In this document: piece after piece, positions 10,964 to 52,908 of the stretch
Position numbering within the stretch: position 1 is the stretch's first letter
Layout of the letters: every line of letters starts with the position of its first letter
DNA from: a virus
Direction: 5' to 3' (one strand)
IMG/VR virus record: IMGVR_UViG_3300021256_000006
Location: 35,954 to 99,953 of that record
Length of the DNA: 64,000 nt
Made by a program: the position numbers and the translations under genes
The notes under the pieces: generated by a model
Told to the model about the DNA's origin: nothing
Databases searched by the model: none
The model's input: the letters and a program-made list of their open reading frames with translations, nothing else

Positions 10964-11032
10964 CCTGCGTACAGCGGTTTTCCCGCTGACACCGCTCAAT
11001 CACCCTCCCTGCGTACAGCGGTTTTCCCGCTG
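10964..11032 (+). repeat. two copies of the CCTGCG-YN-CAGCGG-TTTTC-CCGCTG hairpin element
   Basis: Two identical 25-mers, CCTGCGTACAGCGGTTTTCCCGCTG, at 10964-10988 and 11008-11032. Confidence 0.85.
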
Positions 11033-11060
11033 TCTCCCATCTTATATAAATAATGTGTAC

Positions 11061-11098
11061 TGCAACTTCAAGACAAAAAAGTTGCAAAACATGTTGCA
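11061..11098. promoter_or_regulatory. TGCAAC/GTTGCA inverted and direct repeat cluster (operator candidate)
   Basis: TGCAACTT-N10-AAGTTGCA (8-bp dyad) plus a third GTTGCA at 11093-11098. It lies 40 nt upstream of the TAACTTTG box at 11138. Confidence 0.35.
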
Positions 11099-11137
11099 TA
11101 ACATAAAAATGATGTAACAAAATACATCAAAACACGA

Positions 11138-11145
11138 TAACTTTG
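11138..11145 (+). promoter_or_regulatory. -7 box TAACTTTG
   Basis: Matches TAnnTTTG, 66 nt upstream of ATG 11212. Confidence 0.45.
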
Positions 11146-11211
11146 CAAACAGAATCAATAAACGCTGCGCCAGATAGCAAAACCAAATCCCAAGGGCATG
11201 GGTAACAGATT

Positions 11212-12327
11212 ATGAAAAAGTTCACAGCATCCGAGAACGCAACACGCAAGCAGGTTTTCGCCTACAACCGCGAGAGGTCAAAGAACTCATGGATGGACTC
11301 TTGCACCAAGGTATTCGGCAAGAGTAAGGTTGTTCGCCAGGCCATCGAAGACAGCAACAAGCGCATTGCTTCTCACACTACAGTTCTTACAGGTATCGAC
11401 GCTTACAAGGCTCGATTGAAGGACCGCCTCGAAGGTTTTGCCGCTTGCCTTCCTTCATCCGGTTACAGCATGGGCGAGTTCAAACACATTACTTGCCGCC
11501 ACCTGGGCATCGTTTCTTCTTACGACGCTACCGATGAATACGCAAGGTCTTGCAAGTTCCGCGCAACTCACGGACGTGTAGAGGTTGAGCTTCCCGTTCG
11601 CTTGCTCGCCAAGGCTGAGAACATGGACGGCATGATTACCATCCGCACCAAGCAGATTCAGAATCGCATCTGGAAGTGCCAGTGGGTAGAGTTTGACTAC
11701 ACCCGAAACGGTCGTGGCATCATCAACAGCGAGGTTGGCTACCATCTGGTAAGTGGTTACGTTGTACGCTATGAGAACCACCGAGTTGAGACTTACGCTT
11801 TCAAGAATGGTAAGAACAACACATCAGGCGTTGATTACATCGGAGGTTGGTATCACACCACATCACTTGACAAAGCTCGCAAGAACTTGAAGAGATACCT
11901 TGCTGAAGAGAAGTATTACACCAAGTGTCACGCCATCTTCGCAAAGCGTCGCGCTATCGAAGAGAAGGAGGACGAGAAACGCGCCAAGGCTGAAGCTCGT
12001 GCCAAGGCAAAGGCTGCCAAGGAGTTTGCCAAGCAGGTGAAGCGCGTACAGAAGAGCACCGAACTTTCCGACATCCTTCAGCACATGTACGTCTATCAGG
12101 ACAGCATCAAGGCTGGCAACTGTGTGCCCGGAACCGATGGATTCCTCAAAGCTCACAACCTTCAGAAGACTGACACCCGTAGCGGTGAGTTTCTTCTCCG
12201 CATCAGTCGCCACACATGGCAGCATAAGAACGTCATCCGCGTCCTTGTCCGCTACGCCGCTGACACTCACACCGATTTCTATCAGCAGAATCAGGAGGCT
12301 GTTCGTTCAATTCTTAATACTTTATAA
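11212..12327 (+). CDS. hypothetical protein
   Basis: 371-aa ORF downstream of the TAACTTTG box at 11138. It has a Lys/Ala/Glu-rich central segment. Confidence 0.65.
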   Translation: MKKFTASENATRKQVFAYNRERSKNSWMDSCTKVFGKSKVVRQAIEDSNKRIASHTTVLTGIDAYKARLKDRLEGFAACLPSSGYSMGEFKHITCRHLGIVSSYDATDEYARSCKFRATHGRVEVELPVRLLAKAENMDGMITIRTKQIQNRIWKCQWVEFDYTRNGRGIINSEVGYHLVSGYVVRYENHRVETYAFKNGKNNTSGVDYIGGWYHTTSLDKARKNLKRYLAEEKYYTKCHAIFAKRRAIEEKEDEKRAKAEARAKAKAAKEFAKQVKRVQKSTELSDILQHMYVYQDSIKAGNCVPGTDGFLKAHNLQKTDTRSGEFLLRISRHTWQHKNVIRVLVRYAADTHTDFYQQNQEAVRSILNTL

Positions 12328-12383
12328 TCCTACTTCATTATATAACCCAACAGCCCTCGACATCACGGTTAAGTCAGGAACTT

Positions 12384-13196
12384 ATGAAAACAATGGAATG
12401 GAAAGATTACCTGAATACTCAGCAAGATGCCTATTTGGATGAAGAAAATGGTGCTGACAACGAGGTTGCATATAAGAATGATGACTATACAGTATGGGCA
12501 CACCAGTCATTACACGCAGACGGAGAACATTTCTTCAGTGGTAGCGGCATTGATTTCGCGATGGTTAGCAACAACGCTGAATACGAATACCTGTGCTATG
12601 ACTGCACGCTGAATGAGATTATCAAGAGTCTGGCTCCCGATGCTGAGACTATGCAGGACGTAGCCGACTACTACAACAATTGCGAATCCCTCGACACCCA
12701 GGCTCTTGAAGCCATGATTGAGGCTAACGGATGGGTAAGCGATTGTGATACCGAGTGGGGTGTATGCCACAACGACACAGAGAGGGTGATCATCAACGAT
12801 GAAGGTCAGGCTGTAGTTGTTTCGATGGAAAAGAACTCAGCACTTGCCGCGCTCATGGATGTTAGACTTCAAATTGCGGTCGAAGGTTGGACTATCCCCA
12901 CCAATGACGAAGGTAGTGGCAGCGCAGGCGTGAACTTCCTGACAGACACCGAGGCTGTTGATGCTTACATCCGCTTTGCCTTGACAGGTGACAACACCGA
13001 TTGTCCTAACACTAACAGCATCGAGTATGTTCCTGTTGCTGATTTTGGCGACACCGAGAATGAAGTGCTCGACGAGATTATGCAGTACGCTCACATTTGC
13101 AACGTGGAACGTGACGAGGTTCTTGGATTCATCGTCTGTCACGAAGCATATCACGATATGCCTTACACATTCTACATCACTCACATTCGCGGATAA
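12384..13196 (+). CDS. hypothetical highly acidic protein
   Basis: 270-aa ORF, rich in D/E. No motif recognised. Confidence 0.6.
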   Translation: MKTMEWKDYLNTQQDAYLDEENGADNEVAYKNDDYTVWAHQSLHADGEHFFSGSGIDFAMVSNNAEYEYLCYDCTLNEIIKSLAPDAETMQDVADYYNNCESLDTQALEAMIEANGWVSDCDTEWGVCHNDTERVIINDEGQAVVVSMEKNSALAALMDVRLQIAVEGWTIPTNDEGSGSAGVNFLTDTEAVDAYIRFALTGDNTDCPNTNSIEYVPVADFGDTENEVLDEIMQYAHICNVERDEVLGFIVCHEAYHDMPYTFYITHIRG

Positions 13197-13226
13197 TAAC
13201 GAACGAAAGCATTATATCATATAATT

Positions 13227-13445
13227 ATGAATTTACTCCAACTATCAGCAGTTGCACAGGCATACTACGAGGGGCTTCGCGCCCCCAGCCTGGCGCAAGG
13301 GTGGGAAAAGTATGTCGCCACCAACGGCACAACGTGTATGTTTGTTCACAGCGACTACAACCCACAACCAGGCGAGGCAGTCTTTTTCCTCGCAACGAGA
13401 AACCGTCAAATCAGTTGTCAACTCTACAAACACGTTGAACCATGA
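13227..13445 (+). CDS. hypothetical protein
   Basis: 72-aa ORF whose stop overlaps the next start (ATGA at 13442). Confidence 0.5.
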   Translation: MNLLQLSAVAQAYYEGLRAPSLAQGWEKYVATNGTTCMFVHSDYNPQPGEAVFFLATRNRQISCQLYKHVEP

Positions 13446-13915: not shown

Positions 13916-13924
13916 CAAACGAAG

Positions 13925-13948
13925 GGAGGGAGCCAACAGACTCCCTCC
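13925..13948. terminator. bidirectional stem-loop terminator
   Basis: GGAGGGAG-N8-CTCCCTCC, a perfect 8-bp stem. It lies 3' of the + gene 13442..13915 and 3' of the minus-strand Cas12a-repeat RNA. Confidence 0.5.
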
Positions 13949-14011: not shown

Positions 14012-14019
14012 CAATGCTG

Positions 14020-14089: not shown

Positions 14090-14251
14090 ATGACTGCAAA
14101 ACAACTCGACCGCCTCATTGACGAGCTTCTTAATCTAACAGAAGAAGAACGTAAGCAATTCCTAAGCCGGATGCGACAAGTGATAAAGTCCACAGCTTGC
14201 AACTGTGAAGACCTTGCCAAAGCCTTTTCTAATTTCACGCAAGAAGAATGA
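14090..14251 (+). CDS. small acidic protein (53 aa), candidate anti-CRISPR by context
   Basis: Hand-translated ORF (MTAKQLDRLIDELLNLTEEERKQ...). It is translationally coupled (ATGA overlap) to the downstream XRE HTH gene and is divergent from the Cas12a repeat unit. Confidence 0.45.
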   Translation: MTAKQLDRLIDELLNLTEEERKQFLSRMRQVIKSTACNCEDLAKAFSNFTQEE

Positions 14252-14469
14252 ATACAAGAACTAATATCGGCAAGCGCATTGCCGAACTCCGAGAACAACA
14301 AAATCTGTCGCAGAGAGAGCTGGCCCGTCGATGCAACATTGACCAGGCTCACATATCCAGAATAGAGCGAGGACTGTTATCGCCATCTCTCGACACGCTT
14401 GCAGAAATAGCGGAAACACTTGATGCCAAGGTGGAACTTGTCCCCTGCGCTCAACGGTTTTCCCGTTGA
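14248..14469 (+). CDS. XRE-family helix-turn-helix transcriptional regulator (Aca-like by context)
   Basis: 'IGKRIAELREQQNLSQRELARRCNIDQAHISRIERG' is a typical Cro/CI-type HTH. The C-terminus and stop codon lie inside hairpin element 14444-14468. Confidence 0.8.
   Translation: MNTRTNIGKRIAELREQQNLSQRELARRCNIDQAHISRIERGLLSPSLDTLAEIAETLDAKVELVPCAQRFSR
14444..14468 (+). repeat. hairpin element, CAACGG/CCGTTG stem variant
   Basis: CCTGCGCTCAACGGTTTTCCCGTTG, with a compensatory G->A / C->T change in the stem. Confidence 0.8.
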
Positions 14470-14505
14470 AAAATAAAAATACTAATCATCAAATCTCAAA
14501 CAACT

Positions 14506-14955
14506 ATGTTAACAATTATCGCAATCATCATCACAGCAGTAGTGGCAGCATCACTTACTTTTACAGCCACACGCTCACTCTACATTCACCGCTTTGCGGA
14601 ATGGTATCGCCAAGCCGTTGACAGCGAAGACATCAACGAAACAGCAAGAGCTGAAGGAGACGCCATGTATAATACGCTTTACAACAAGTGGCACATGATC
14701 CGGGAAGTGGACAATTCCATCATCCCAGAATATGTGTCCCAAAAATTTGACGTCGAAGGAGATGTGTTCACACAATGTGACCTGCGCTTCAATTGCCGTG
14801 TGGCCCGTTGGTTGGGTTATGACCTCACATTGACTAAGCGTGACGTTCCGCCACCACCACCATTCAAACCATCTTCCCCCAAAAACATACGCACCGAATT
14901 GGTGGAGTGCATAGATGCAACATTAAGCGCCGAAGATGAACAGGAAGAATCATGA
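14506..14955 (+). CDS. membrane-anchored hypothetical protein
   Basis: N-terminal hydrophobic helix 'LTIIAIIITAVVAASLTF' and a Pro-rich C-terminal part. Confidence 0.6.
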   Translation: MLTIIAIIITAVVAASLTFTATRSLYIHRFAEWYRQAVDSEDINETARAEGDAMYNTLYNKWHMIREVDNSIIPEYVSQKFDVEGDVFTQCDLRFNCRVARWLGYDLTLTKRDVPPPPPFKPSSPKNIRTELVECIDATLSAEDEQEES

Positions 14956-16082: not shown

Positions 16083-16217
16083 TGTTTTGCAGCATGTTTT
16101 TCCTGTTGAGAACTTGGCTTCCTAAAGCAAAGTTCTCAAAATTTTTTCATCACCCCAACCACCAAAGGCCAAACTATGCCCTTTTGTCACTTACCCCCCC
16201 CTTTCTCCCTCCTCTCT

Positions 16218-16242
16218 CCTGCGTCCAGCGGTTTTCCCGCTG
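16218..16242 (+). repeat. hairpin element
   Basis: CCTGCGTCCAGCGGTTTTCCCGCTG. The flanking genes are on the minus strand, but the element is still in + orientation. Confidence 0.85.
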
Positions 16243-16262
16243 TCTCTCCCTCCCCCTCACCC

Positions 16263-16294
16263 AAAAAGCGCCCGACTTTCACAAGCCGGGCGCT
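16263..16294 (-). terminator. Rho-independent terminator of the tape measure gene
   Basis: On the minus strand, AGCGCCCG-N12-CGGGCGCT (8-bp GC stem) is followed by TTTTT, 33 nt after the stop at 16327. Confidence 0.7.
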
Positions 16295-23067: not shown

Positions 23068-23140
23068 AGCTGTGCTTGTTATTTGTGCTTGTGTTATTTG
23101 TGTCTGTTTTTGTATGGTTATACAATTTTAATTGCTTCTC

Positions 23141-23165
23141 CCTGCGTCCAGCGGTTTTCCAGCTG
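23141..23165 (+). repeat. hairpin element (one stem mismatch)
   Basis: CCTGCGTCCAGCGGTTTTCCAGCTG, lying between terL and the tape measure gene (both minus). Confidence 0.75.
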
Positions 23166-23301
23166 TCTCTCTCCTTTCCCCTCTCTTCGTCTTCGTTTTC
23201 GTCCTCCTCCCTCCTGCGCCCGCCGGTCCTCTCTCCCCTCTCCTCTCTTCCCTCATCCCTCATCCCTCATACATCTTCCCTCATCCCTCTTCCCTCTTCC
23301 C

Positions 23302-25221
23302 TCACCATCTCCGGCTCCCCCATCTTCCGTTCTTCCATGCGTTATGACTTCTTCCGCTCCACATCGTCTGCTCTTTCATACCAAACTTGCAAAGTCCTCG
23401 CATGATATTGTCGAAGGCATCGCTCATGTCGGTGTAGTTGTTGCTGCCCAGTTCATCATCTGTACTCATCCCATCACCGCTTGTGCGCTTCTCTGGAGCC
23501 TTGTACTTGTGCAACTTGCCCATCTTTGTCGTCGTCTTTGAGTTCTCCAGCGAGGCCACAAGATAGTCATTGCGAATAGCGTTAATTCGTGGCATATACC
23601 GCTCTTTACCGGCAAAGCACGCATTGATAAACTCAAACTTCACATCGTGGAACATCGGATTGCCCATGTCAATCATGATGACATTCCATCCATGATTTTC
23701 GAGTGATTCACGGATGATATTGTAGAAGTAGTATCGTTCATCGTTTCCAGCGCGACTGGCATACGAGCGCCCTTGCTTGCCTGTGCTGTCATAGTATAGC
23801 ACGACGTCTTTGCAGGTGTACTGGTGTGGAGCGTAGTAATTGTGCCACTTCTCCATAAGGTCTTCCAGCATCTTTGGATTCTTCATGAACATGCTGGATA
23901 GGATGATGGCGCTTTCTGTGCCATCCATCATGCCCGTCTGTGCAGTCACCACCGTATTCACGTTGGAGTTGTAGTCATGAGCAATATAGAGTGGCTTGCC
24001 CGGCTGCATATCCACGTCAAGGGTGCAGTTGCCGCCTACGGCACCGAGTTCCTGAAGGTCTGGCGCCTCATAATCGTAGGTCTTGCTGTAAGCTCCGAGG
24101 TCAATGTTGGCCTTGTGCTTGGACTGAAACTTGCTGTAAATACGGTTGGTCTCATCGCTTTGGCTTGGCGTGTAGCCGTGAATATCCATGTCGAAGTTCG
24201 GATAAAAGCGCTGTGACTTGTCTAACGTGGCTTTCTTTCCAAGAATCTGCACGTTGTACAAGAGGTCTGGCATGTCTCGTTTTCGGTCTGCCATGTACTG
24301 CATTCCTAAAATGCTGGCATTGTAAAACGAAGAGAACCTAAAGAACACTCTGGACTGGCACCTCAAATAGCGGAGCCGTTCTACAAACTTGGGCGCATGG
24401 GATAATTGCCAGGCTGCATCCGTCGTGTATCGACCGTCTTTCTTGTTGGCTTCATCATATTCTTCTGCATATTTCAGTTGCGCCAGCATCTCGCAGATGA
24501 GGTCATTGTAGTCTCCCGTTTGGTCTTCTTCCATGCATTCCCACTCTTGCTGCTTCTTGATGACTCCTGCATCGGAGAAGAAGGACTCGGAGAGGTAAAA
24601 CGGGTTTTCGTTCCGTCTGTAACCGGGGTGATCATATACTTCGCCACGCAGAGCAGGACGCACAGACTCCACATAGTTCCTCCAGTTGGCATATCTTGCC
24701 TCGTCCATCAACGAATAGCTGAGGTTCAGACCATTTGCTGGGGCGTAGGAATTGGTGGAGATGCACATCAGGATATTCCCGTTGATGAACGACAGCACGT
24801 TCTCCCATCGGCGAGGAACAGCCATAGGTTTGTCCCATCCCCACCGCGCGTTGGGCTTTCCGCGCACAAAGTCACGGCCCTCTATGATGCCAAAAGTCTC
24901 CATCGACTTCACAAGGTTGGGCATCAGGATGGCAAACACCTGCTTGATGGTGGCGCCAAACAACGCACCTGTTGCCCTCGGCAAGGTGGCTACGCACCCA
25001 TGTAGCCGGGTGGATTCAAAGGTGGTCTTGCCCAGACCACGACCGCCGCACATAGCCATTGACTTGCTGCCCATGTTGTGTGCCAGCCGTTGTGCGGGAT
25101 TAAGATACACCTGTTTGGTCCCACTCGCCATAGGTGTCTCTTCCGTCTCGCTAAACATCAATGGGTACTGCTTGGCCACGTCTTTGATGTTATCCTCTAA
25201 TGTAAGCCCATTTCTTGCCAT
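23302..25221 (-). CDS. terL: terminase large subunit
   Basis: 639 aa. Walker A-like 'CGGRGLGKTT', Walker B-like 'LSYSLMDEA', and a C-terminal half with Asp-containing nuclease-like blocks ('YIAHDYNSN', 'MIDMGNP'). Confidence 0.7.
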   Translation of the reverse strand: MARNGLTLEDNIKDVAKQYPLMFSETEETPMASGTKQVYLNPAQRLAHNMGSKSMAMCGGRGLGKTTFESTRLHGCVATLPRATGALFGATIKQVFAILMPNLVKSMETFGIIEGRDFVRGKPNARWGWDKPMAVPRRWENVLSFINGNILMCISTNSYAPANGLNLSYSLMDEARYANWRNYVESVRPALRGEVYDHPGYRRNENPFYLSESFFSDAGVIKKQQEWECMEEDQTGDYNDLICEMLAQLKYAEEYDEANKKDGRYTTDAAWQLSHAPKFVERLRYLRCQSRVFFRFSSFYNASILGMQYMADRKRDMPDLLYNVQILGKKATLDKSQRFYPNFDMDIHGYTPSQSDETNRIYSKFQSKHKANIDLGAYSKTYDYEAPDLQELGAVGGNCTLDVDMQPGKPLYIAHDYNSNVNTVVTAQTGMMDGTESAIILSSMFMKNPKMLEDLMEKWHNYYAPHQYTCKDVVLYYDSTGKQGRSYASRAGNDERYYFYNIIRESLENHGWNVIMIDMGNPMFHDVKFEFINACFAGKERYMPRINAIRNDYLVASLENSKTTTKMGKLHKYKAPEKRTSGDGMSTDDELGSNNYTDMSDAFDNIMRGLCKFGMKEQTMWSGRSHNAWKNGRWGSRRW

Positions 25222-25235: not shown

Positions 25236-25291
25236 TGTCAACTATCAACTGTCAACTATCAACTGTCAGCTATCAACTGTCAATTATCAAT
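25236..25291. repeat. heptamer microsatellite (TGTCAAC/TATCAAC) x8
   Basis: Eight contiguous 7-mers alternate TGTCAAC and TATCAAC, giving a 14-nt period. Confidence 0.9.
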
Positions 25292-25942
25292 TCCCTCCTC
25301 CCCTGCGTCCAGCGGTTCGCCCGCTGGTTCATCCATCTTGTGTGTAATACGGTTCCCAACTTCCACTTCCTGCTTCTCCTTCAACTTATCCAGTGCTTTT
25401 TCAATCTTCTCATCATGTTCATCAATATGCGCATCCCATTGTCGCATAATGCCCAGCAAAGTCTTGTCGCCAATCGTTTTGCGGTCAGGGTCAAGCACCT
25501 CGACGTAGGGAGTGTACACAAAGGCTTGTGGTCTGATTTGCTTGTCTTCAACCTCCGGCTCTGGCTTGTCAAGTTGATTGGCTCTTGTCAGCACCTTGGC
25601 AGCATCGAGCATGCCTTTTCGGTCGTTCACTGCCGCAGAATCTCGCATGACCTTTTCGCTGGCCCAGTTCACCAGGTCTTTCGCCTTCTGCCGTGTCATG
25701 CGCTGAAAGTTGTTGCGGATATACTCGAAGTAAACCATGTCCTCAGCAATCATGGACGGTGAATGTTTGAACTTCCACCGTAGGCACTGAACCACATCCA
25801 TGCAAGGATTCTCGTTGTACATGTCGTACAGCGAAAACAAGTCATTAAGCCTCTTGCGAACGTGCACAAGTTCCGTCAGTTCGTGTGCCGGAATGCCGTT
25901 CACGAAGTGTGACTGAATAAAAGGTGTCAAATCTGTCTTCAT
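25280..25942 (-). CDS. hypothetical protein (terminase small subunit candidate by position only)
   Basis: Start moved to ATG 25942, because the track's TTG start lies inside a heptamer array. It sits directly upstream of terL. No motif support. Confidence 0.5.
   Translation of the reverse strand: MKTDLTPFIQSHFVNGIPAHELTELVHVRKRLNDLFSLYDMYNENPCMDVVQCLRWKFKHSPSMIAEDMVYFEYIRNNFQRMTRQKAKDLVNWASEKVMRDSAAVNDRKGMLDAAKVLTRANQLDKPEPEVEDKQIRPQAFVYTPYVEVLDPDRKTIGDKTLLGIMRQWDAHIDEHDEKIEKALDKLKEKQEVEVGNRITHKMDEPAGEPLDAGEEGIDN
25302..25327 (+). repeat. hairpin element (loop TTCGC)
   Basis: CCTGCGTCCAGCGGTTCGCCCGCTGG, a 7-bp stem overlapping the 3' end of the minus gene 25280..25942. Confidence 0.8.
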
Positions 25943-27497: not shown

Positions 27498-27633
27498 CGT
27501 TTTCGTTTTCGTCTTCGTTTTGGTTTTCGTTTCTCCTGCGCTCAGCGGTTTTCCCGCTGGCCCTCTCTCCTCGTCTCTCCCGCCGTTTTCGTTTTCGTTT
27601 TCGTTTCTACTGCGCTCAGCGGTTTTCCCGCTG
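27498..27633 (+). repeat. composite cassette: (TTTTCG)n - hairpin - CT-rich - (TTTTCG)n - hairpin
   Basis: Hairpins at 27535-27559 and 27609-27633, each preceded by CGTTTTCGTTTTCG-type hexamer runs. Confidence 0.85.
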
Positions 27634-27650
27634 ATTCTCTCCCCCCCCCA

Positions 27651-28148
27651 TCAGCAATAATTGAACGGCATAACCACATTGACGTGCAGCACCACACTCT
27701 CCCAACCGTCTCCAAACGGACCGGTTGTGTCCCAGCTTAGATTGTCCACATCAATCCAGAAAGCCAGCCCCATTGTATGATTCTTTTTGGCATCTTTGTG
27801 CGCAGAGACAAGGTCTTTGACAAACGCCTCAGTCATGTTTTGGGCGCGGTCAAGCGCTGCCGCCAGCCCTTGTGCGTTGGCATAGTCTGGCTCTCGGGCA
27901 TTCATGTACAGTTCAAACGTGGCATACTTGAAGTCGCCTCTTTTCCCACCGCCATAATTGAGGTCCATCATGGTAGAGTGAAATATCTCATTGCTCGCAT
28001 GCTGCAGCATGTCCATCTTGCCCGCAAAGCCGTTGGCCAAAAAGCACGCATCACGTTCTTCTTGGTTGCCAGTGATTCCCAATGCCTGGTGCATTCTGTC
28101 TGCAGTCCATATCTGCAAATACTCGAACATTTCTTCTCGCAGTGTCAT
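27651..28148 (-). CDS. hypothetical protein
   Basis: 165-aa ORF. No motif recognised. Confidence 0.55.
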   Translation of the reverse strand: MTLREEMFEYLQIWTADRMHQALGITGNQEERDACFLANGFAGKMDMLQHASNEIFHSTMMDLNYGGGKRGDFKYATFELYMNAREPDYANAQGLAAALDRAQNMTEAFVKDLVSAHKDAKKNHTMGLAFWIDVDNLSWDTTGPFGDGWESVVLHVNVVMPFNYC

Positions 28149-30542: not shown

Positions 30543-30552
30543 GCACCTGCTT

Positions 30553-30577
30553 CCTGCGCCCAACGGTTTCCCCGTTG
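30553..30577 (+). repeat. hairpin element, CAACGG/CCGTTG variant
   Basis: CCTGCGCCCAACGGTTTCCCCGTTG, 11 nt after the stop at 30542. Confidence 0.8.
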
Positions 30578-30591
30578 TCCCAATTCCCAAC

Positions 30592-30668
30592 TCTCAACTG
30601 TCAACTCTCAATTGTCAACTATCAATTCCTCATTCCCAATTCCTCATTCCTAATTCCTCATTCCTAAT
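30592..30668. repeat. heptamer microsatellites: (TNTCAAY)x5 then (TCCYMAT)x6
   Basis: Hand-phased 7-mers lying between hairpin 30553-30577 and gene 30683. Confidence 0.9.
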
Positions 30669-30682
30669 TATAAATTCTCCCC

Positions 30683-33646: not shown

Positions 33647-33654
33647 GCCCCCGC

Positions 33655-33760
33655 CCTGCGTCCAGCGGTTTTCCCGCTGGCCCTCTCGTTTTCGTCTTCG
33701 TTTTCGTCTTCGTTTTCGTCCCCTCGTCCTTCTCCCCTGCGCTCAGCGGTTTTCCCGCTG
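33655..33760 (+). repeat. composite cassette: hairpin - (TTTTCG/TCTTCG)n - hairpin
   Basis: Hairpins at 33655-33679 and 33736-33760 flank CGTTTTCGTCTTCGTTTTCGTCTTCGTTTTCG. Confidence 0.85.
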
Positions 33761-33807
33761 AATCTACAAAATAAAACCAACAACTACACACCTAATCCCA
33801 AAAACAA

Positions 33808-41175: not shown

Positions 41176-43065
41176 ATGACTAAAGAAATAAGACCATTGC
41201 AGCGGTATAATGCGAATACCGAACAGACAGAAATTTTCTATCCTGCCACAACGACCGACGCGATTGCGCACCCCACAAAAAGAAAGTCGCTAACAAACGT
41301 GATTTCTGACATAGAAGCAAGTATTGCCGACATCGAGACGATTGCCGAGGGCTATGTGCGTGTGGCTGGTTCGTCAAGTCCTGCTCTCTCTTACAAGTCA
41401 TACAAGTATCACGAACAGGGCGGCTTCGGACGTGAATCTGTGTTCTCGCTGTTCTACCCCTGTCTGGTGGGAACACCGCTGACAGGCAGTGGCACAGAAG
41501 GCAAGGTGCTTCATGTGCTTCAGAAGTTCGGTGCAAGAACTATCGACGGAAGCCCGAAATGGCTTGACATCTACGGAACACCTCATGCCATCGACGGCTC
41601 GGAGGGTGACGTGCTGATTGTGAACATTGAACCATTTTACAGCATCAACGGCAAGCACACAATCGAGGGCACGGAGTATGATGTATTCCTGATGTCGCGC
41701 TCACCATTCACCTGGCAGGGCATCGAGGCAGAGCACATGGAGAAGTTCGGATGGAGCCCTGACTACTGCGTGAGCCATACGGACACCGACAACGTGGTGC
41801 GTATGCACTCAGTTTATAACCCTGCGTGGAACGGATCATACCAAGCACCTCAAGGCGTGACTGGCAAGTACGTCTATACCACCGACCCTGAGACGGGCGA
41901 CATTGTGGAAACCTATGATGCAAACGAGACACTGCTGGGTGGTGCAGGTGGCTTGCACTCTACTGACATCGACCTGACTACGGGTGAACAACGAGCCATG
42001 AACATGAACGCTGACCCGACGAAGACCGTGCCATGGATGAACCAGACGGCAGAGGGTTGCAACCGACTGATGTCGCTGATACTGGCAGAGGGTGGCACGT
42101 TCGATGCGCACAACGCAGCTCGTATGGGTAGTGGTTTCTCATCCAATGACCCCGCCACCGCAGCAGGCGACTGGGAACAGGCGGGCAGCGGTGCGAAGAA
42201 CGGTTTGCGCGTGAAGGACAAGAACGACGCATGGAAGTACTACGGAATGAACGGCAACGTCCGCTTCCTGACGGGTGCAACGTCGGGTGCGGTGTATGCT
42301 GCCAACGTTATCAACTCTTGGCGAAATCCGTGGCACATTCTGGAGGCGCACCGTGCGATGTCGTATGCTATTGAGAACGACGTGCACGAGCTGGAGTGGT
42401 TTGTGTTCGAGGGCAACAAGTACAAGTACCGCAGCGTGCAAGGCTTCAACGGTCCGAGTCACGGAGAAATGACCTGTGTGGTGTGGAAGCTCATGGCAAC
42501 ACAGGCTGGTGCCAATGCCATCGACCCGACAGACAACGCAACGAGCATCGCAGGCAATCGCGTGGAAATACTCGTCAGCACAGCACTCGTTCACGGCATG
42601 ACTACGCAGGTATCACCTTCGTGGTGGACTTCAGGACTGCTGTTCACGGAAGATGAGAGCGGACAGTATGAGTGCTTCATTGAGCGCGACCAGGCAGAAC
42701 TGGTGAAGGGCATTGCCGCTGACAATTACGACCCAGCAACACCACGAAACTTCGAGACTATCTACGATCATGTGCTCACCGTACAGAAGGGCGAAGGCTA
42801 CGCTAAGAACTATCTGAACGGAGCGCTGATGCTGCCTGATACCAATGCCAACAAGACTGGGGCAGGCTTGCATACCTATGTTGGCAAATACAACTGGTTT
42901 ACGGGTAGCAATGCAAGTGCTGGGAAGCGGTCGGTCCGTGGCTTCCGGCGCGGCGCCCTCGCTAACTACGCGGTCCTGTCTCCGTTGGCGCTGAACGCTT
43001 ACTACTCGCCCTCGGGCGCGGGCACGGGCCTCGGCTTCGGCACCTGTTGTCGCATAGCGGAATAG
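41176..43065 (+). CDS. DGR target protein with a C-terminal variable (C-type-lectin-like) region
   Basis: The last ~40 codons (42927-43049) form the variable repeat matching the template repeat at 43299-43421. The TR-encoded 'RGFRRGNNANNTN...NIGFGN' follows the usual Asn(AAC)-rich CLec-type pattern. Confidence 0.85.
   Translation: MTKEIRPLQRYNANTEQTEIFYPATTTDAIAHPTKRKSLTNVISDIEASIADIETIAEGYVRVAGSSSPALSYKSYKYHEQGGFGRESVFSLFYPCLVGTPLTGSGTEGKVLHVLQKFGARTIDGSPKWLDIYGTPHAIDGSEGDVLIVNIEPFYSINGKHTIEGTEYDVFLMSRSPFTWQGIEAEHMEKFGWSPDYCVSHTDTDNVVRMHSVYNPAWNGSYQAPQGVTGKYVYTTDPETGDIVETYDANETLLGGAGGLHSTDIDLTTGEQRAMNMNADPTKTVPWMNQTAEGCNRLMSLILAEGGTFDAHNAARMGSGFSSNDPATAAGDWEQAGSGAKNGLRVKDKNDAWKYYGMNGNVRFLTGATSGAVYAANVINSWRNPWHILEAHRAMSYAIENDVHELEWFVFEGNKYKYRSVQGFNGPSHGEMTCVVWKLMATQAGANAIDPTDNATSIAGNRVEILVSTALVHGMTTQVSPSWWTSGLLFTEDESGQYECFIERDQAELVKGIAADNYDPATPRNFETIYDHVLTVQKGEGYAKNYLNGALMLPDTNANKTGAGLHTYVGKYNWFTGSNASAGKRSVRGFRRGALANYAVLSPLALNAYYSPSGAGTGLGFGTCCRIAE
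42927..43049 (+). repeat. DGR variable repeat (VR)
   Basis: 123 nt collinear with the TR at a constant offset of 372 nt. All 24 differences fall at TR adenines. Confidence 0.9.
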
Positions 43066-43109
43066 AAAACGTAAACCCCGCGAGCAAGGCGAGCGCGAAA
43101 ACGAAAACT

Positions 43110-43126
43110 GCGCGGCTGAGCCGCGC
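43110..43126 (+). other. GC-rich hairpin downstream of the VR
   Basis: GCGCGGC-TGA-GCCGCGC, a 7-bp stem about 60 nt after the VR end. It may be the DGR target-recognition hairpin or cruciform. Confidence 0.4.
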
Positions 43127-43155
43127 CCGCTGAGCAATAGCGAAGGCTATAATAC

Positions 43156-43174
43156 TGCCGCAAGGCGGCATTTT
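43156..43174 (+). terminator. Rho-independent terminator after the DGR target gene
   Basis: TGCCGC-AAG-GCGGCA followed by TTTT. Confidence 0.5.
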
Positions 43175-43298
43175 GCCCGAATAGTGTGGAGATGTGGTGC
43201 GACATCGTTGAAGCAAAAATCCATGCCACCGACCAAAGCGCACAAGGGAATCGGAGTACCCGTCAGGTGGTGAGGTTGAAATAAGGCGGCTGCACTGT

Positions 43299-43421
43299 AC
43301 GGTCGGTCCGTGGCTTCCGGCGCGGCAACAACGCTAACAACACGAACCTGTCTCCGTTGACGATGAACGCTAACAACTCGCCCTCGAACGCGAACACGAA
43401 CATCGGCTTCGGCAACTGAAA
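43299..43421 (+). repeat. DGR template repeat (TR)
   Basis: Non-coding copy of the VR. It holds 33 adenines, 24 of which differ in the VR. In the VR frame it is rich in AAC codons. Confidence 0.9.
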
Positions 43422-43621
43422 CGCAGTAACGAAATACATAAGCCCTCCAATGCTTGACCTGAGCATGAAGAGGCAGGTGCAGAGCCTCGCTGACGAAGAG
43501 AGCGGAACAACGCAGGAAAAGGTGCTAAGACCACCAGCCGACCGCGCAAGAATGAGCGAAGGAAAGGGTAGGCTGCAAGGCGTTCAAAAACCTTGCTATC
43601 GGCGCAACAGGTCATAAAGCG

Positions 43622-43642
43622 TTCAGCGGTTCCCCCGCTGAA
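43622..43642 (+). repeat. 8-bp-stem hairpin (TTCAGCGG-TTCCC-CCGCTGAA) 18 nt upstream of the RT start
   Basis: Identical 17-nt core, located in the TR-RT spacer. Confidence 0.8.
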
Positions 43643-43659
43643 AAACAAAGAAAAGAACA

Positions 43660-44988
43660 ATGGGGACATCCACATGGAACAACATCACCACCGGCCTTCA
43701 CGCTGCTGTATATGACAGCTACATGGCCAAGAGCTCACGCCAACGCGCCAAGCGTGAGGTGGTGGAGGTCATGGCAGATGTGGACGGGTTCTGCCAACGG
43801 AAGCAGGCAGAGCTGGCAAGCGGCAGCTACCATGTGGGTGACTATCGTCACTTCCAGTTGAAGGACAAGAAGAAGGAGCGTAGCATCTCTGTACTGCCCT
43901 ATGAAGACCGCTGCGTGCAGAATGCTATCAAGGATGCCATAGAGCCGCTATTGCTCCGTCAGATGACCGACGACATGATGGGAGGTCTGCCTGGTTGCGG
44001 CGTGCTGGCAAGCGACAAGCGGCACCAGGTGGTGGCACGGATGCGGGTGATGCTGAACGACCGCTCGCTGAGGTATTGCTTGCAAGGTGACATCGAGAAG
44101 TTCTACGACCATGTGGATAATGTCATCAGTATGCGGCTCATTGAGAAGCAGGTGAAAGACAAGCGCACAAGGGCGGTTATCCGTCAACACCTCTTCAACC
44201 AGAAGCGGCTCGCTATTGGTGATCCATTCAGTCACCTTATCGCCAATCTCAATACGTCGGTCATTATTCGCAAGGCAAAGGAGTTGTACGGCAATAGCAT
44301 CAAGGTGGTCAATTTTGCCGACGACTTCATAGCCTTCAGCAGAGACAAGACAATCCTCAATGCCCTGCGGAAAGATATGAAGATATGGGCAAAGGCGATG
44401 CGGTTGCATTACAAGCCGATGTACGTGCGTCCCATAGACCCGCAACCAGGAAAGGAATACAACCCTATTATCTTCTGCGGCTACAAGTGCGGGCGTGGTT
44501 ATGTTCACCTCACCCCGCGCACTAAGAAACGATACGTCAAGACCCGACACAAGGAACGCAGTATTGGCTCCTATCAGGGCATTATCGGCGTGGCTGACAC
44601 GAAACATCTGAGACTAAAAGTACAAATTAACGATAACAAAACTATGAGCGAGAAAATCAGGCGACCATTTGCAGGACGCCCCATGAAGATAGAAACGATG
44701 GAAGGTATCAACCACACCATTGTGGACTTTCAGAAACGCAGCAGCAATCAGAAGGACTGCGACAGTTACTATCACATCCAGGCACTTGCCGACGGGCTGG
44801 GGCTAATAGTCTATTCGACGGGCGCACAGAAAATCTGCAAGTATCTCGACACCAAGAGAAGGACGGACATCCCATTGCGTGACATGAAGATAGTGCACGA
44901 CTGGAGTGGATTCTACTACGATGGCACCGTATATACCGATGCCGAGGAAGAGGAAATGATTCGCAAACAATTTAACATATCGAAATAA
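43660..44988 (+). CDS. DGR reverse transcriptase
   Basis: RT motifs 'ISVLPYEDRCVQNAI', 'LQGDIEKFYDHVD', 'IGDPFSHLIANL' and 'VNFADDFIAF' (YxDD equivalent). It lies directly downstream of the TR. Confidence 0.9.
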   Translation: MGTSTWNNITTGLHAAVYDSYMAKSSRQRAKREVVEVMADVDGFCQRKQAELASGSYHVGDYRHFQLKDKKKERSISVLPYEDRCVQNAIKDAIEPLLLRQMTDDMMGGLPGCGVLASDKRHQVVARMRVMLNDRSLRYCLQGDIEKFYDHVDNVISMRLIEKQVKDKRTRAVIRQHLFNQKRLAIGDPFSHLIANLNTSVIIRKAKELYGNSIKVVNFADDFIAFSRDKTILNALRKDMKIWAKAMRLHYKPMYVRPIDPQPGKEYNPIIFCGYKCGRGYVHLTPRTKKRYVKTRHKERSIGSYQGIIGVADTKHLRLKVQINDNKTMSEKIRRPFAGRPMKIETMEGINHTIVDFQKRSSNQKDCDSYYHIQALADGLGLIVYSTGAQKICKYLDTKRRTDIPLRDMKIVHDWSGFYYDGTVYTDAEEEEMIRKQFNISK

Positions 44989-44989
44989 T

Positions 44990-45331
44990 ATGAGACAAGA
45001 ACGATTTTCAGAGCCTCACAAGCAAGGCTTGATGAAGCTCACTGGTGACAACACAGGACTGGTGTACTGCAACGAGCGCACCGAAGTAGTAACCGACGAA
45101 GAGGGCAACGAAAAGACGGAGTACGTGTACGACGTGTACGAGGTCACAGATGCCCGCGACCCTCACAAGGTGAAGAATGAGGTGATAGAGAATGAGCACC
45201 CCTTCGGCGATGAGACGAAGATACTGCGCAAGACCATTGCCAAGATGCTAAAGGCATCAGGTCAGTATAACAGCGAGGACTTCCGAGAGTTTAAGCAATA
45301 CAACGAATTTGTCGAAAGCATCGACGTATAG
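44990..45331 (+). CDS. hypothetical acidic protein downstream of the RT
   Basis: 113-aa ORF starting 2 nt after the RT stop. No motif recognised. Confidence 0.55.
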   Translation: MRQERFSEPHKQGLMKLTGDNTGLVYCNERTEVVTDEEGNEKTEYVYDVYEVTDARDPHKVKNEVIENEHPFGDETKILRKTIAKMLKASGQYNSEDFREFKQYNEFVESIDV

Positions 45332-48995: not shown

Positions 48996-48998
48996 ACT

Positions 48999-49874: not shown

Positions 49875-49877
49875 GGC

Positions 49878-50246: not shown

Positions 50247-50365
50247 AGGAAGAATGAGAAATGCAACAAAGAAGTGAGGATGGACTACCGCCCACAAACC
50301 GAGGAGAAACCTACAAAACAGCAAGGTAATTGCTGTCAAGAAACTGCACCACCCTTCTGCCCCAC

Positions 50366-50474
50366 CCCTGCGTCCAGCGGTTTTCCCGCTGGCCCTCTCT
50401 CCTCCCTCTCTCCTCCCTCTCGTCTTCGTTTTCGTTTTCGTTTCTTCCCCCTGCGCTCAACGGTTTACCCGTTG
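50366..50474 (+). repeat. composite cassette: hairpin - CT-rich/(TTTTCG)n - hairpin (CAACGG variant)
   Basis: Hairpins at 50366-50390 and 50450-50474. Confidence 0.85.
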
Positions 50475-50593
50475 ACCCAACTCCCAATCACCGCATCCTC
50501 ACACCTTCGCATTATCACATCTTCACATTTTAGTATTTCTACATTCTTACATCATTATATTATCAATCTTTCAAATTATCAAATTATTAAATT

Positions 50594-51100
50594 ATGAAAA
50601 CTCCTGAACAAATGAAAGAGCAGTTTGACGAACTGTACAACCTCATGTCGAACAGCAACAATGTTGCTTTCATGCGCACGTTTGGTCATGTGCACAAGGA
50701 AATGATGAACTGGTTCATCGCTAACAAGCCCGAGGCGGCAGAGGAATGGTTGTGCAAACTGGAGAGCATCAAGTGGCATAACTATCTCACGCAGAAGGAA
50801 GCGGACAAGATTGTCGCAGGAATGACCCCTAAAGCGCCATGGAGCCGAGACGCATGGAAACAGGCCATGGACGGACTTGGCATCTCAACGGAAGAGGCAC
50901 CATACTATAACTCTTGTGCGCTCTATACAGAGATGAACAAGATGTATAGCGACCATGCCGAAACCTTGGCTAAGTTGATGGGCAAGACCATTGCTGAAAT
51001 TCCAGCCGAGACAATGGTCAAGGCCATGTACGGCTTTGCCATTGACAACTTGAAGGACAAGGACCACGTGTACAACATCCGCTCCTACTTCAAACTCTAA
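50594..51100 (+). CDS. hypothetical protein
   Basis: 168-aa ORF flanked on both sides by hairpin and repeat cassettes. Confidence 0.6.
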   Translation: MKTPEQMKEQFDELYNLMSNSNNVAFMRTFGHVHKEMMNWFIANKPEAAEEWLCKLESIKWHNYLTQKEADKIVAGMTPKAPWSRDAWKQAMDGLGISTEEAPYYNSCALYTEMNKMYSDHAETLAKLMGKTIAEIPAETMVKAMYGFAIDNLKDKDHVYNIRSYFKL

Positions 51101-51114
51101 CCACACATCTCCTA

Positions 51115-51139
51115 CTTGCGTATGACGGTTTACCCGTCA
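51115..51139 (+). repeat. hairpin element, TGACGG/CCGTCA variant
   Basis: CTTGCGTATGACGGTTTACCCGTCA, with a doubly compensated stem. Confidence 0.7.
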
Positions 51140-51338
51140 CCCCAGCACCCACACACTTGCCGTGTAATTCGGGCACCGACTGAGCATGCCAGCCGGTGCC
51201 CTTCCATTATCAAATGATTACATCATCGCATCGTCACATCATCGCATTTCCGCATTTCCCCGTTTCCGCATCTTCACATTTCCACATTTTCCCATCTTCC
51301 CCCCCCACCCTTTTTTTTATCTCCGTTTTCGCCTTCTC

Positions 51339-51363
51339 CCTGCGTCCAGCGGTTTTCCCGCTG
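51339..51363 (+). repeat. hairpin element
   Basis: CCTGCGTCCAGCGGTTTTCCCGCTG. Confidence 0.85.
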
Positions 51364-51491
51364 GCTCTCCCTCCTCCACCTCCCCGTCTCCCCCTCCTTC
51401 GTCTTCGTCCCCTCATCCCTCATCCCTCATCCCTCATACATCTTCCCTCTTCCCCCCCCCCTCCTCTCTCCCCATCTTCACATTTTCAAAT

Positions 51492-51505
51492 GATGTTATA
51501 TAACA
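51492..51505. promoter_or_regulatory. perfect 14-bp palindrome ATGTTATATAACAT upstream of the parA promoter
   Basis: Perfect dyad 36 nt upstream of the TAACTTTG box at 51541. Candidate operator. Confidence 0.4.
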
Positions 51506-51540
51506 TATAAAAATGTAATCACATTTTCACATTTTCACAC

Positions 51541-51548
51541 TAACTTTG
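51541..51548 (+). promoter_or_regulatory. -7 box TAACTTTG upstream of parA
   Basis: Matches TAnnTTTG, 73 nt upstream of ATG 51622, and is preceded by CACATTTT iterons. Confidence 0.5.
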
Positions 51549-51621
51549 CACCCAGTGAGAAAAATACTGCTGCATCGCATAGCAGCCATTCATCAATAAT
51601 CATTATAAACAACATCAAATT

Positions 51622-52383
51622 ATGGCAAAAACTATCGCAATCCTCAACTTCAAGGGTGGGGTAGGGAAGACGACCACAGCCATCAACCTGGCCGCAGCCC
51701 TGCATAACCACAAAAAGAAAGTCCTTGTAATCGACATTGACTTCCAGTGTAACGCATCTTCCACATTAGGGTACAGACCCAAGGACGGAGACAGCATCTA
51801 CGAGTTGTTTACGGTCAAAGACATCAAGTCTCTTCCTCTCTATGAACGGGAAAAAGGTTTTGACTTTATCCCTTCGTCCATGAACATGAAGAACTTCAAT
51901 GAAATCATGTCTTCACGGAACCGACGTGAGTACATCCTAAAGAAGCTCGTCGATATGGTGCGTGACAATTATGATTTCATCTTTATTGATTGCCCGCCTA
52001 ACGGTGGCCTCTTGAATACAAATGCAATGTGTGCAGCGGACTCTATCATCATCCCTCTTGATTGTGAGCCGTATTCCCTGCAGGGAGTTATCACCATCTT
52101 GGATGAAATCAAATCCATACAGGAGGATGAGGTGAATCCTGACATCAATATCCTTGGTTTTCTCCTTACTCGCTACGACTCTGTGCTGTCTATCCATAAG
52201 GAAGCAGCCAGCATGATGCGTGACCGCTATCCCGGGAAAGTCTTTAACGCAAAGATACGAAAGAACACAGCGCTCTCCAAAGCATCAGCACAGGGAAAGA
52301 CCATCTTCGAGTATGCACCTGACTCTGCCGGAGCCGCCGATTACGACCAACTGGCCCGCGAAATCCTCAAAGCAAAGAAATAA
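51622..52383 (+). CDS. parA: ParA/Soj-family partition ATPase
   Basis: Deviant Walker A 'NFKGGVGKTTTAINLA' plus 'IFIDCPP'. At 253 aa it is typical of small type Ib ParA proteins. Confidence 0.9.
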   Translation: MAKTIAILNFKGGVGKTTTAINLAAALHNHKKKVLVIDIDFQCNASSTLGYRPKDGDSIYELFTVKDIKSLPLYEREKGFDFIPSSMNMKNFNEIMSSRNRREYILKKLVDMVRDNYDFIFIDCPPNGGLLNTNAMCAADSIIIPLDCEPYSLQGVITILDEIKSIQEDEVNPDINILGFLLTRYDSVLSIHKEAASMMRDRYPGKVFNAKIRKNTALSKASAQGKTIFEYAPDSAGAADYDQLAREILKAKK

Positions 52384-52393
52384 CATCTTTCAC

Positions 52394-52418
52394 CAAGCGT
52401 CCATCGGTTCCCCGATGG
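52394..52418 (+). repeat. hairpin element, CCATCGG/CCGATGG variant
   Basis: CAAGCGTCCATCGGTTCCCCGATGG, 11 nt after the parA stop. Confidence 0.7.
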
Positions 52419-52438
52419 GACAAATAAAAATACTAATT

Positions 52439-52765
52439 ATGGCAACAAAGAAAAAACAAGTCCTGACTACAGGATTCCTCGTAGAAACAGAGGAAGATAA
52501 ATATACGGAAAGAAACAAACAGAAGAAACTTGAAGCACAGAAGGGTGGGGGAGTGAACAGCCCAAAAGGGAAGGGCTCCCGATGGAGAGAAACACAACGC
52601 CCTCATGCCAAGTCTATCCATTTTGACGAGGCGCTGCATCAAAAAATAAACTTACTGAAGCACCTCACCAACAAGCCTGTCGAGGATATTATCTACGACA
52701 TCATCCACGAATGGTTTGACACCAACTTTGAAAATAAGAAAAAGGAACTGCTCGGTCAACTATGA
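52439..52765 (+). CDS. small basic protein, candidate centromere-binding partner (ParG/RHH-like)
   Basis: 108 aa from ATG 52439, directly downstream of parA. It has a basic disordered N-terminus, then 'KSIHFDEALHQKINLLK', consistent with a ribbon-helix-helix. The call rests on position. Confidence 0.45.
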   Translation: MATKKKQVLTTGFLVETEEDKYTERNKQKKLEAQKGGGVNSPKGKGSRWRETQRPHAKSIHFDEALHQKINLLKHLTNKPVEDIIYDIIHEWFDTNFENKKKELLGQL

Positions 52766-52883
52766 CCGGGCAGTTCCCATACTAACACATTTCCACATTT
52801 TCACATTTTTACACTTTCCCATTTCCGTATCTCCCCATCCCCCCGTTTTCGTCTTCGTTTTCGTTTTCGTTTTCGTTCTCTCA

Positions 52884-52908
52884 CCCGCGCCCAACGGTTT
52901 ACCCGTTG
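52884..52908 (+). repeat. hairpin element, CAACGG/CCGTTG variant
   Basis: CCCGCGCCCAACGGTTTACCCGTTG, preceded by a TTTTCG hexamer run at 52843-52878. Confidence 0.75.

Follow-up and report, generated by a model that had tools for sequence, protein, structure and literature searches.

A one-strand hairpin repeat in a Bacteroidales phage and in rumen Bacteroidales contigs, tentatively read as a REP-like element

The IMG/VR virus record IMGVR_UViG_3300021256_000006 contains, between positions 35,954 and 99,953, some 20 copies of a short hairpin element that all lie on the same strand, and the question raised by this stretch of 64,000 nucleotides (nt; hereafter the window) is what such a structured repeat does there and why it keeps to one strand. 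A preliminary description had proposed a role at the DNA level or one tied to a particular strand, and had named strand-specific nick sites and a selfish element, similar to repetitive extragenic palindromic (REP) sequences or miniature inverted-repeat transposable elements (MITEs), among the options. We find that the strand lock and the structure recur in related phages and that near-identical copies occur in bacterial contigs. At roughly even odds, we favor a non-autonomous palindromic repeat of the REP type over a dedicated phage signal.

Copies in the window and their structure

Both strands of the window were searched with the core pattern CAGCGGTTTTCCCGCTG, allowing up to 3 mismatches, with shuffled sequence as the control. 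All of the matches (18/18) were on the + strand, against 0.16 from the shuffles, and that strand also has a further two copies, at 51126 and 52405, which diverge more from the pattern. A covariance model was built from an alignment of 27 copies, 20 from the window and 7 from related loci, and run filter-free on both window strands with a cut-off of E = 0.1. It recovered exactly the 20 sites listed below at 29-49 bits, no other match below the cut-off and no minus-strand copy in the window, which agrees with the earlier count of about 20 copies, all on the + strand. These copies form 16 separate sites, and a sign test for uniform orientation over the 16 sites gives p ~3e-5. The finding is real and beyond chance. 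The copies are spread across 46 kb, some of them within open reading frames (ORFs), and are listed here with two associated features:

6813-6847, + strand: copy in the DarB-like ORF (TCAGCGGTTCCCCCGCTGA), 37.9 bits; in frame as SGSPAD in a P/S-rich linker
10179-10213, + strand: copy in the DarB-like ORF, 32.1 bits; in frame as SGSPAE
10959-11037, + strand: tandem pair with cores at 10972-10988 and 11016-11032 (44-nt period), just downstream of a canonical terminator at ~10915-10950
14439-14473, + strand: R-type copy with CAACGG/CCGTTG stem, overlapping the stop of ORF 14248-14469 and 37 nt before the start of the gene at 14506
16213-16247, + strand: L-type copy at a convergent junction, with polypyrimidine tracts around it (16179-16262), ~25 nt past the tape measure terminator
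23136-23313, + strand: module between two minus-strand genes, with an L-type copy (stem mismatch CCAGCTG, 42.2 bits), a TTTTCG run and a long CT-rich/CCCTCAT tract
23208-23230, + strand: degenerate R copy in the preceding module, 14.4 bits
25297-25331, + strand: L-type copy with loop TTCGC, antisense in the C-terminus of the minus-strand ORF 25280-25942 (ending ..PAGEPLDAGEEGIDN*)
27530-27638, + strand: composite of hairpin, CT tract, (TTTTCG)3 and hairpin between minus-strand genes; the right hairpin is 17 nt from the stop of the minus-strand gene 27651-28148
30548-30582, + strand: copy CAACGG TTTCC CCGTTG, 18 nt past the stop of the gene for a protein of 479 amino acids (aa)
33650-33765, + strand: composite unit, with the L hairpin 16 nt past the stop of the 987-aa gene, a TTTTCG/TCTTCG run, and the R hairpin 47 nt before the next start
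43611-43645, + strand: subfamily copy in the spacer between the template repeat of a retroelement and its reverse transcriptase, 19 nt before the start of the latter
50362-50479, + strand: composite of L hairpin, CT tract, TTTTCG run and R hairpin with CAACGG/CCGTTG stem
51110-51144, + strand: copy with TGACGG/CCGTCA stem, 22 nt past the stop of the DUF7841 gene
51285-51487, + strand: L-type copy (51334-51368) in long polypyrimidine tracts upstream of parA, with the R partner missing
52389-52422, + strand: copy with a 7-bp CCATCGG/CCGATGG stem and the 4-nt loop TTCC, 18 nt past the parA stop and 14 nt before the next start
52858-52913, + strand: (TTTTCG)n run and R-type copy CAACGG TTTAC CCGTTG at a convergent junction, with the L partner missing

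The core of the element is ~30 nt long and reads, on the + strand, (C)TGCG-NN followed by a stem of 6-7 bp that is capped by CGG/CCG and closed by a TTYNC loop. In the 27-copy alignment, 93% of the cells of the 7-bp helix are paired, against 25-55% with a slid partner. Three stem pairs vary solely through double compensated changes (CG/UA, AU/GC and GC/AU/UA), which bears out the earlier claim that selection acts on the structure, and the CGG/CCG pairs at the top of the stem are invariant. A census of 68 perfect-stem copies over 15 loci gives a strict rule for the loop, TT(Y)(N)C or TTYC in 66/68 copies (GNRAA or GNRA on the other strand), and a single strand for each locus, with 0/15 loci mixing strands. 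DNA folding predicts that the hairpin forms from either strand. The 5' flank is less fixed than had been described; a CCTGCG flank had been assigned to every copy, and only its central GC is invariant among the 20 copies. The tetranucleotide directly 5' of the stem is CGTC in 7/20 window copies and in most host copies, and CGCT, CGTA, CGCC or CGTT in the others.

Polypyrimidine tracts usually surround the core. Many copies in this phage belong to a composite unit of ~110 nt, made of an L hairpin, a CT tract, (TTTTCG)n and an R hairpin, that is complete at 27.5, 33.7 and 50.4 kb and partial at three further sites. The L-type hairpin reads GCG-TC-CAGCGG...CCGCTG-G and the R-type GCG-CT-CAGCGG...CCGCTG-A. 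Paired hairpins are 44-83 nt apart and bridged by TTTTCG runs, much as first described.

Two side observations concern the sequence between the hairpins. TTTTCG/TCTTCG hexamer arrays occur on the + strand only (23180-23200, 27586-27603, 33680-33720, 50420-50445 and 52835-52875), where they bridge hairpin pairs and cluster near parA, and none is found in the host arrays; a small ParB/ParG-like protein, for instance the product of ORF 52433-52765, could bind them. Other G-poor short tandem motifs (CAACTNTCAA, ATTCCTCATTCC and CTCTAAA/CCCTAAA) fill spacers of the window (25240-25300 and 30585-30680) and of two related loci (L017, 5830-5895 and 9960-10000; L019, 9950-10000), always on the one genome strand, whether the gene block is plus or minus. 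Spacers have little G on the + strand (G 0.13-0.18) whichever way their genes run, and this hints at a strand asymmetry of the whole replicon that extends past the hairpin element. A k-mer test for a general surplus of direct relative to inverted repeats is inflated by tandem tracts and carries no weight here.

The earlier statement that all copies hold to the + strand in the minus-strand gene block at 16-29 kb is correct as to the strand, and is narrower than it sounds as to the number of copies. Only 4 copies at 3 sites (23152, 25313 and 27546/27620) lie among minus-strand genes, so that within the window an orientation held whichever way the genes run rests on three sites. The copies at 16229 and 52895 mark convergent gene junctions, and the covariance-model scan places no copy in the minus-strand block at 53-64 kb.

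Several familiar structures were considered and rejected. A CRISPR array or solitary repeat does not fit the spacers, which are low-complexity, CT-rich and 15-55 nt long with a period of 44-83 nt, and an attC site and an N4-type promoter were rejected on anatomy. The hairpin of a diversity-generating retroelement was likewise set aside; the hairpin that follows the variable repeat differs in sequence, and a related phage lacks the element ahead of its reverse transcriptase. Rfam has no family match in the window, nor was a tRNA found there, and a literature search with the sequence string of the element returned primers only.

Occurrence in related phages and bacterial contigs

No close relative of the window, as DNA or protein, was found among INPHARED phages and PLSDB plasmids, nor in IMG/VR by way of the 479-aa protein. 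Syntenic relatives were recovered through homologues of the 987-aa protein and of the tape measure protein. Three of these (L017, L018 and L047) share 53% identity with the window in the 987-aa protein, 44% in the tape measure protein and 83% in DarB, and contain 19 model matches in 27 kb, all of which, once the loci are oriented by synteny, lie on the equivalent of the window + strand. In L047, 6/19 copies are antisense inside genes of the minus block. Protein alignments present those intragenic copies as in-frame insertions in variable loops that are missing from homologues. The inserts read WRENRQE... and SVGKTDGRKE... in a minus-strand 404-aa ORF of a related phage, and LPALGGSPAKP and similar in a plus-strand 448-aa ORF. 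Two further loci (L019 and L020) have two weaker copies, again antisense in the same ORF. Because the lock recurs in related phage L017/L047, the strand invariance is real and is a property of the lineage.

Presence of the element is patchy. The model finds no copy in the closest long relative (L015/16, 61% identity), in seven loci that share the DUF7841 gene at 67-85% identity (L035-41), or in L042, L043 and L048. The spacers of the window that carry the element are 100-170 nt longer than their counterparts in L015 and L019. Two phages at 81.5% nucleotide identity (L017 and L044) have copies at shared sites, differ in tandem number (2 vs 1), and have copies homogenized within each genome. The window and L047 have the two DarB copies at orthologous positions. 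A strain with 97% tape-measure identity (L046) has both hairpins upstream of its tape measure gene intact, and in the window one of the two carries a mismatch in its stem and 12 nt are missing from its partner; one window copy is thus decaying relative to that strain. Strains at 97-100% identity come from samples SRR23823306 and SRR33454275.

As a separate observation, IS200/IS605-family insertions were found in related phages, at 6668-8299 in L038/L039 (TnpB alone or with an unrecognized 153-aa ORF) and at 19092-20717 in L048 (Y1_Tnp and TnpB). Since these insertions are present, single-strand transposons do colonize this phage group.

The exact element pattern, which has no match in IMG/VR (looser patterns gave mostly chance matches without hairpins), is found in four metagenome-assembled genome contigs of Bacteroidales or Prevotellaceae and in seven metagenome contigs. 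Copies from rumen Bacteroidales are near-identical to the phage copies and have the same CT-rich polypyrimidine flanks, and a parA homologue in L010 is the one protein that any of the bacterial contigs with these copies has in common with the window. Carriers among the rumen Bacteroidales include RUG11782, W1P18.013, RUG242 and UBA4359. Host copies form head-to-tail arrays with a 44-66 nt period within polypyrimidine sequence. A four-copy array lies between convergent recN and dnaB, a chromosomal setting. A second family of host loci has an array A past a canonical terminator between convergent genes and an array B between divergent gene starts, with array copy number ranging between strains over 1-5 and 2-4. 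Judged from these contig sequences, the element is not phage-specific. The preliminary description had held that a common host REP motif unrelated to the phage would speak against its proposal, and the outcome lies between the two, with the motif present both in rumen Bacteroidales, including the recN-dnaB spacer, and in the phage lineage.

In the second host locus family (L001, L002, L006, L007 and L008), the two arrays flank a small helix-turn-helix (HTH; XRE-like) gene and precede an HTH_36/DUF7833 gene beside SusD-like genes; this locus family could be an integrated element. A longer opposite-strand ORF across the HTH gene is probably spurious. A rule by which host copies are always sense to the flanking genes was tried and rejected, since what separates the two arrays is an HTH gene of opposite strand, and array B has divergent gene starts on either side.

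REP-type repeats are regarded as features of bacterial chromosomes that occur on both strands and are poorly understood. Here one small repeat family is common to a phage lineage and to rumen Bacteroidales chromosomes; it enters ORFs in frame in both reading senses and, in each of two diverged phages, keeps to one strand for 46 kb or more. By its sequence the element also ties an uncultured phage to its likely hosts.

What the repeat may be

The reading that we prefer, with a probability of about 0.5, is that the element is a REP/RPE-like non-autonomous palindromic repeat (RPE, Rickettsia palindromic element), which is recognized or copied in single-stranded form, as the hairpin together with the conserved motif beside it, with copying either coupled to one strand of the replicon or driven by homology between polypyrimidine tracts. 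We favor it because of the sharing between host and phage, the patchy presence, the variable arrays, the in-frame intragenic copies, the stem subfamilies specific to each genome and the decaying copy. Among the options first put forward, the REP/MITE-like selfish element is the one best supported by the comparative data. The proposal of a DNA-level, strand-tied role keeps the lock and the structure, which recur in a related phage; an essential, phage-specific signal is argued against by the host arrays, the absence from closer relatives, the in-frame ORF copies and the decay.

The strand lock requires a copying process that preserves orientation. HUH/Y1 enzymes act on REPs, IS200/IS605 ends and nic sites by way of one strand, and a single strand of DNA may be recognized here too, through the hairpin and the adjacent conserved single-strand motif. 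Alternatively, new copies might arise by template switching or conversion between polypyrimidine tracts. Either route would keep orientation relative to the replicon and not to the genes, and a single-stranded template, such as the lagging-strand template or the displaced strand of rolling-circle replication, would put every copy on one strand. Arrays would then lengthen and shorten through tandem duplication. Inserted copies would be tolerated in spacers just past stop codons and as in-frame linkers of ORFs, where the hairpin may incidentally serve as an RNA 3' hairpin in either orientation. The element could provide a handle on how such repeats copy, by single-strand replication-coupled chemistry or by recombination. 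If it is merely a selfish repeat, its value is cautionary, since covariation and strand bias by themselves would be no proof of phage function.

Several observations count against this reading. No cognate transposase or nuclease was found among the window ORFs, including unannotated ones, or beside the host arrays, and no target-site duplication or target motif could be defined at the copies. Known REPs form inverted dimers and occur on both strands (PMC3733652; PMC12306157), and the present element is solely head-to-tail and on one strand. The IS200/IS605 copies of the relatives (L038/L039 and L048) have no model match at their ends. Only ~4 independent host loci are available. Attempts to read the replication direction of the phage from skews at four-fold sites, intergenic composition and skews at the host loci were not decisive, with heterogeneous genes and a signal in which the elements, codon usage and ORFs that are possibly spurious all act as confounders. 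Diverged phages retain copies at orthologous sites, so a function besides mobility is possible, and the strict loop rule could likewise mean function and not mobility alone.

The closest described group is the CGTC-tagged REP superfamily, which includes the intragenic RPEs of Rickettsia, occurs in Bacteroidetes and has no dedicated transposase (PMC3733652). Shared with it are a palindrome that measures 20-40 nt and has a loop of 4-5 nt, and many dispersed copies just past stop codons that are patchy between strains with no dedicated transposase seen; as with the RPEs, some copies are in frame within genes. Of the tetranucleotide tags that mark one end of such palindromes (GTAG or CGTC), CGTC stands at the 5' foot of 7/20 window copies and of most host copies. 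The stems differ, being 6-7 bp here and 8-9 bp in those REPs, where they begin with A-T pairs. The element also lacks their CCA tail, has strongly polypyrimidine flanks, and forms head-to-tail pairs or arrays and never inverted dimers. E. coli REPs use both strands equally (PMC12306157), whereas this element is confined to one strand per replicon and is carried by a phage.

A second comparison is with IS200/IS605 ends, the palindrome-associated transposable elements (PATEs) and the REP/RAYT system. Single-strand transposition of IS200/IS605 is reportedly coupled to the lagging-strand template (Ton-Hoang et al.), and such chemistry is known to yield an orientation bias linked to replication. 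The likeness lies in sub-terminal hairpins read from one strand at both ends of a unit, as in the composite with its L and R hairpins, in a short motif at the foot, and in a setting where Y1 transposases occur in related phages. Unlike IS200/IS605 and the PATEs, the element has no cognate Y1 linked to it in the window or beside the host arrays, and the IS ends of the relatives are unrelated; nor does it have a defined target site, and it often occurs as a single hairpin or in a tandem array.

Seen from the minus strand, the sequence is 5'-hairpin-(R)(G/A)CGCAGG-3'. The element could be a strand-specific phage signal, either T5/tf-type nick sites or hairpins for single-strand priming or loading in rolling-circle replication or packaging, with an enzyme that would read the GNRAA-loop hairpin of the minus strand and act at the adjacent (R)GCGCAGG. 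A motif on one strand only, regardless of transcription, is what the nick sites of T5, tf and phiKMV display (PMC3517423). Phage tf has 14 such sites, all on the top strand of a convergently transcribed genome (PMC3517423), and 14-20 sites per genome covers both cases. R-type copies read CCGCTGA/GCGCAGGGG on the minus strand, which is the T5 consensus R/GCGCRGG; the window has 12 matches to RGCGCRGG, 9/12 on the minus strand and 7 of those in elements. The minus-strand flank, A/GCGCAGG(G), is identical to that of annotated T5 major single-chain interruptions (a/GCGCAGGG), as in the following:

33736-33743, 14444-14451, 27535-27542 and 50450-50457, minus strand: examples of AGCGCAGG(G) flanks of R-type copies
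9748, 22336 and 39746 of T5 (L045): the sites compared with them

The strict loop rule, which gives GNRA or GNRAA on the minus strand, and the persistence of copies at the same sites in diverged phages also speak for a signal of this kind. The agreement with T5 is nevertheless partial, as the full GCGCRGG occurs in only 7-8/20 copies, L-type copies have ACGCAGG, and the nick sites of T5 have no conserved 5' hairpin. More generally, the sites of T5, tf and phiKMV are plain words of 7-19 nt with no conserved covarying hairpin and none known in host chromosomes, whereas the present element, known here from sequence alone, has both. The arrays in bacterial chromosomal spacers, the closer phage relatives in which the element is absent and so dispensable, and the decaying window copy weigh on the same side, and no nickase, HNH protein or primase was recognized among the window proteins. 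The nick sites of the preliminary description thus gain from the R-type flank and lose by the chromosomal arrays and the absence from relatives, and we regard a strand-specific signal of this type as unlikely. A bolder version is a little more doubtful still: the hairpin plus (R)GCGCAGG would be the site of a strand-specific single-stranded DNA nickase acting on phage and Bacteroidales host alike, as hairpin-guided T5-like nick sites or as the ends of a new replication-coupled single-strand mobile element. If true, the uniform orientation would report the direction of replication or packaging of the phage-plasmid, and the element would predict nicks or replication polarity in Bacteroidales phage-plasmids.

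The same strand invites two further comparisons. The boxB of lambda has a GAAAA loop, and an oriT consists of an inverted repeat and a nic site. The minus-strand loop of the element is GNRAA or GNRA in the same 66/68 copies, as in boxB/nut, and, much like relaxase nic-site hairpins, the element has a conserved single-strand motif 3' of its hairpin. A nut-like RNA role is unfit, in that most copies would be antisense to local transcripts, and the window, unlike either system, yielded neither a relaxase nor an N-like protein.

Gene context raises the possibility of a role at the RNA level, as a 3'-end hairpin that stabilizes or tunes the upstream gene, or as a polar Rho-dependent terminator or insulator with C-rich, G-poor YC tracts as hairpin-split rut sites, acting on + transcripts only. 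Hairpins lie 13-22 nt past stop codons at six sites, for genes of either strand, and 13/16 window sites are sense to local genes. Polypyrimidine tracts (at least 27/30 Y) are extreme and occur at 14 places on the + strand and 1 on the minus, and RNA folding of a pair predicts two clean hairpins with unstructured CU-rich sequence between them. Several copies come after canonical terminators, and as first noted they are not the main terminators themselves; a terminator scan of the window called none of the elements, which have no T tract, and the tape measure gene is served by a minus-strand terminator of its own at ~16270-16286. The lack of a T tract and of an Rfam family in these scans also counts against an RNA role. 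The element is antisense to the local gene at three window sites and in six L047 copies. R-type copies 14-47 nt ahead of start codons within operons, and others inside ORFs, cannot terminate transcription. Host array B lies between divergent gene starts, and a hairpin that works in either orientation would leave the strand lock unexplained. We hold such a role to be improbable.

Around parA (50.3-52.9 kb), six copies and three TTTTCG or CT tracts are gathered, and copies in L010 lie near a parA homologue and a weak Rep-like ORF; host arrays, moreover, are upstream of an HTH_36/DUF7833 gene. These settings suggest double-strand protein-binding sites, in which TTTTCG arrays and palindromes would be bound as partition centromeres or iterons for the ParA system or a replication initiator. 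Covariation of the arms around a fixed center fits a folded hairpin and not a sequence-specific duplex site, and the copies extend over 46 kb and into ORF interiors. Host arrays are without TTTTCG runs; relatives that have the neighboring DUF7841 gene are without elements, and the parA homologue itself is found only in L010. Binding sites of this kind are, in our judgment, very improbable. Least credible of all are Chi-like orientation-dependent sites that would shield the phage or a rolling-circle tail from AddAB/RecBCD. Uniform orientation over a replicon is the signature expected of them, and the GCG- and AGCGG-type motifs of the flank and stem resemble Chi sites of Firmicutes. Chi sites, however, are short single-strand words for which a hairpin is not needed; the present element, by contrast, has a covarying stem and a fixed loop, and close relatives are without it.

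The phage and its gene content

The window is part of a tailed phage of a Bacteroidales host; its start codons have no Shine-Dalgarno sequence and the TAnnTTTG promoter motif is present. Genes lie in four blocks, on the + strand at 1-16.2 kb, on the minus strand at 16.3-29.2 kb, on the + strand at 29.3-52.8 kb and on the minus strand at 53-64 kb. The recognized genes and features include:

45-488: PcfJ-like protein
2787-3401: stand-alone MutS domain I (MutS_I) protein
3558-4658: LPD11/DUF7659 protein
5585-10675: DarB-like methylase-helicase
minus strand: tape measure protein, 2246 aa
41176-43065: target gene of the retroelement, tail-fibre-like
42928-43046 and 43300-43418: variable repeat and template repeat of the retroelement, 83% identical, with differences at template A positions
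43660-44988: reverse transcriptase of the retroelement, followed by a 113-aa ORF that may be an accessory protein
51622-52383: parA

The retroelement is a complete diversity-generating retroelement (41176-45331), and three relatives (L017, L018 and L044) likewise carry its reverse transcriptase. The region 1-10675 is an anti-restriction or "polyvalent protein" gene cluster of a type typical of conjugative elements and P1-like phages. A 371-aa ORF at 11212-12327, with no function assigned, has 4 G at its four-fold sites against 61 C and 67 T, a skew far above that of its neighbors. The last minus-strand block encodes a PAPS-reductase-like protein (53711-54562), a protein with a weak radical-SAM match (62687-63559) and two GNAT acetyltransferases (56193-56552 and 61596-61949), for which a role in DNA or nucleotide modification is possible.

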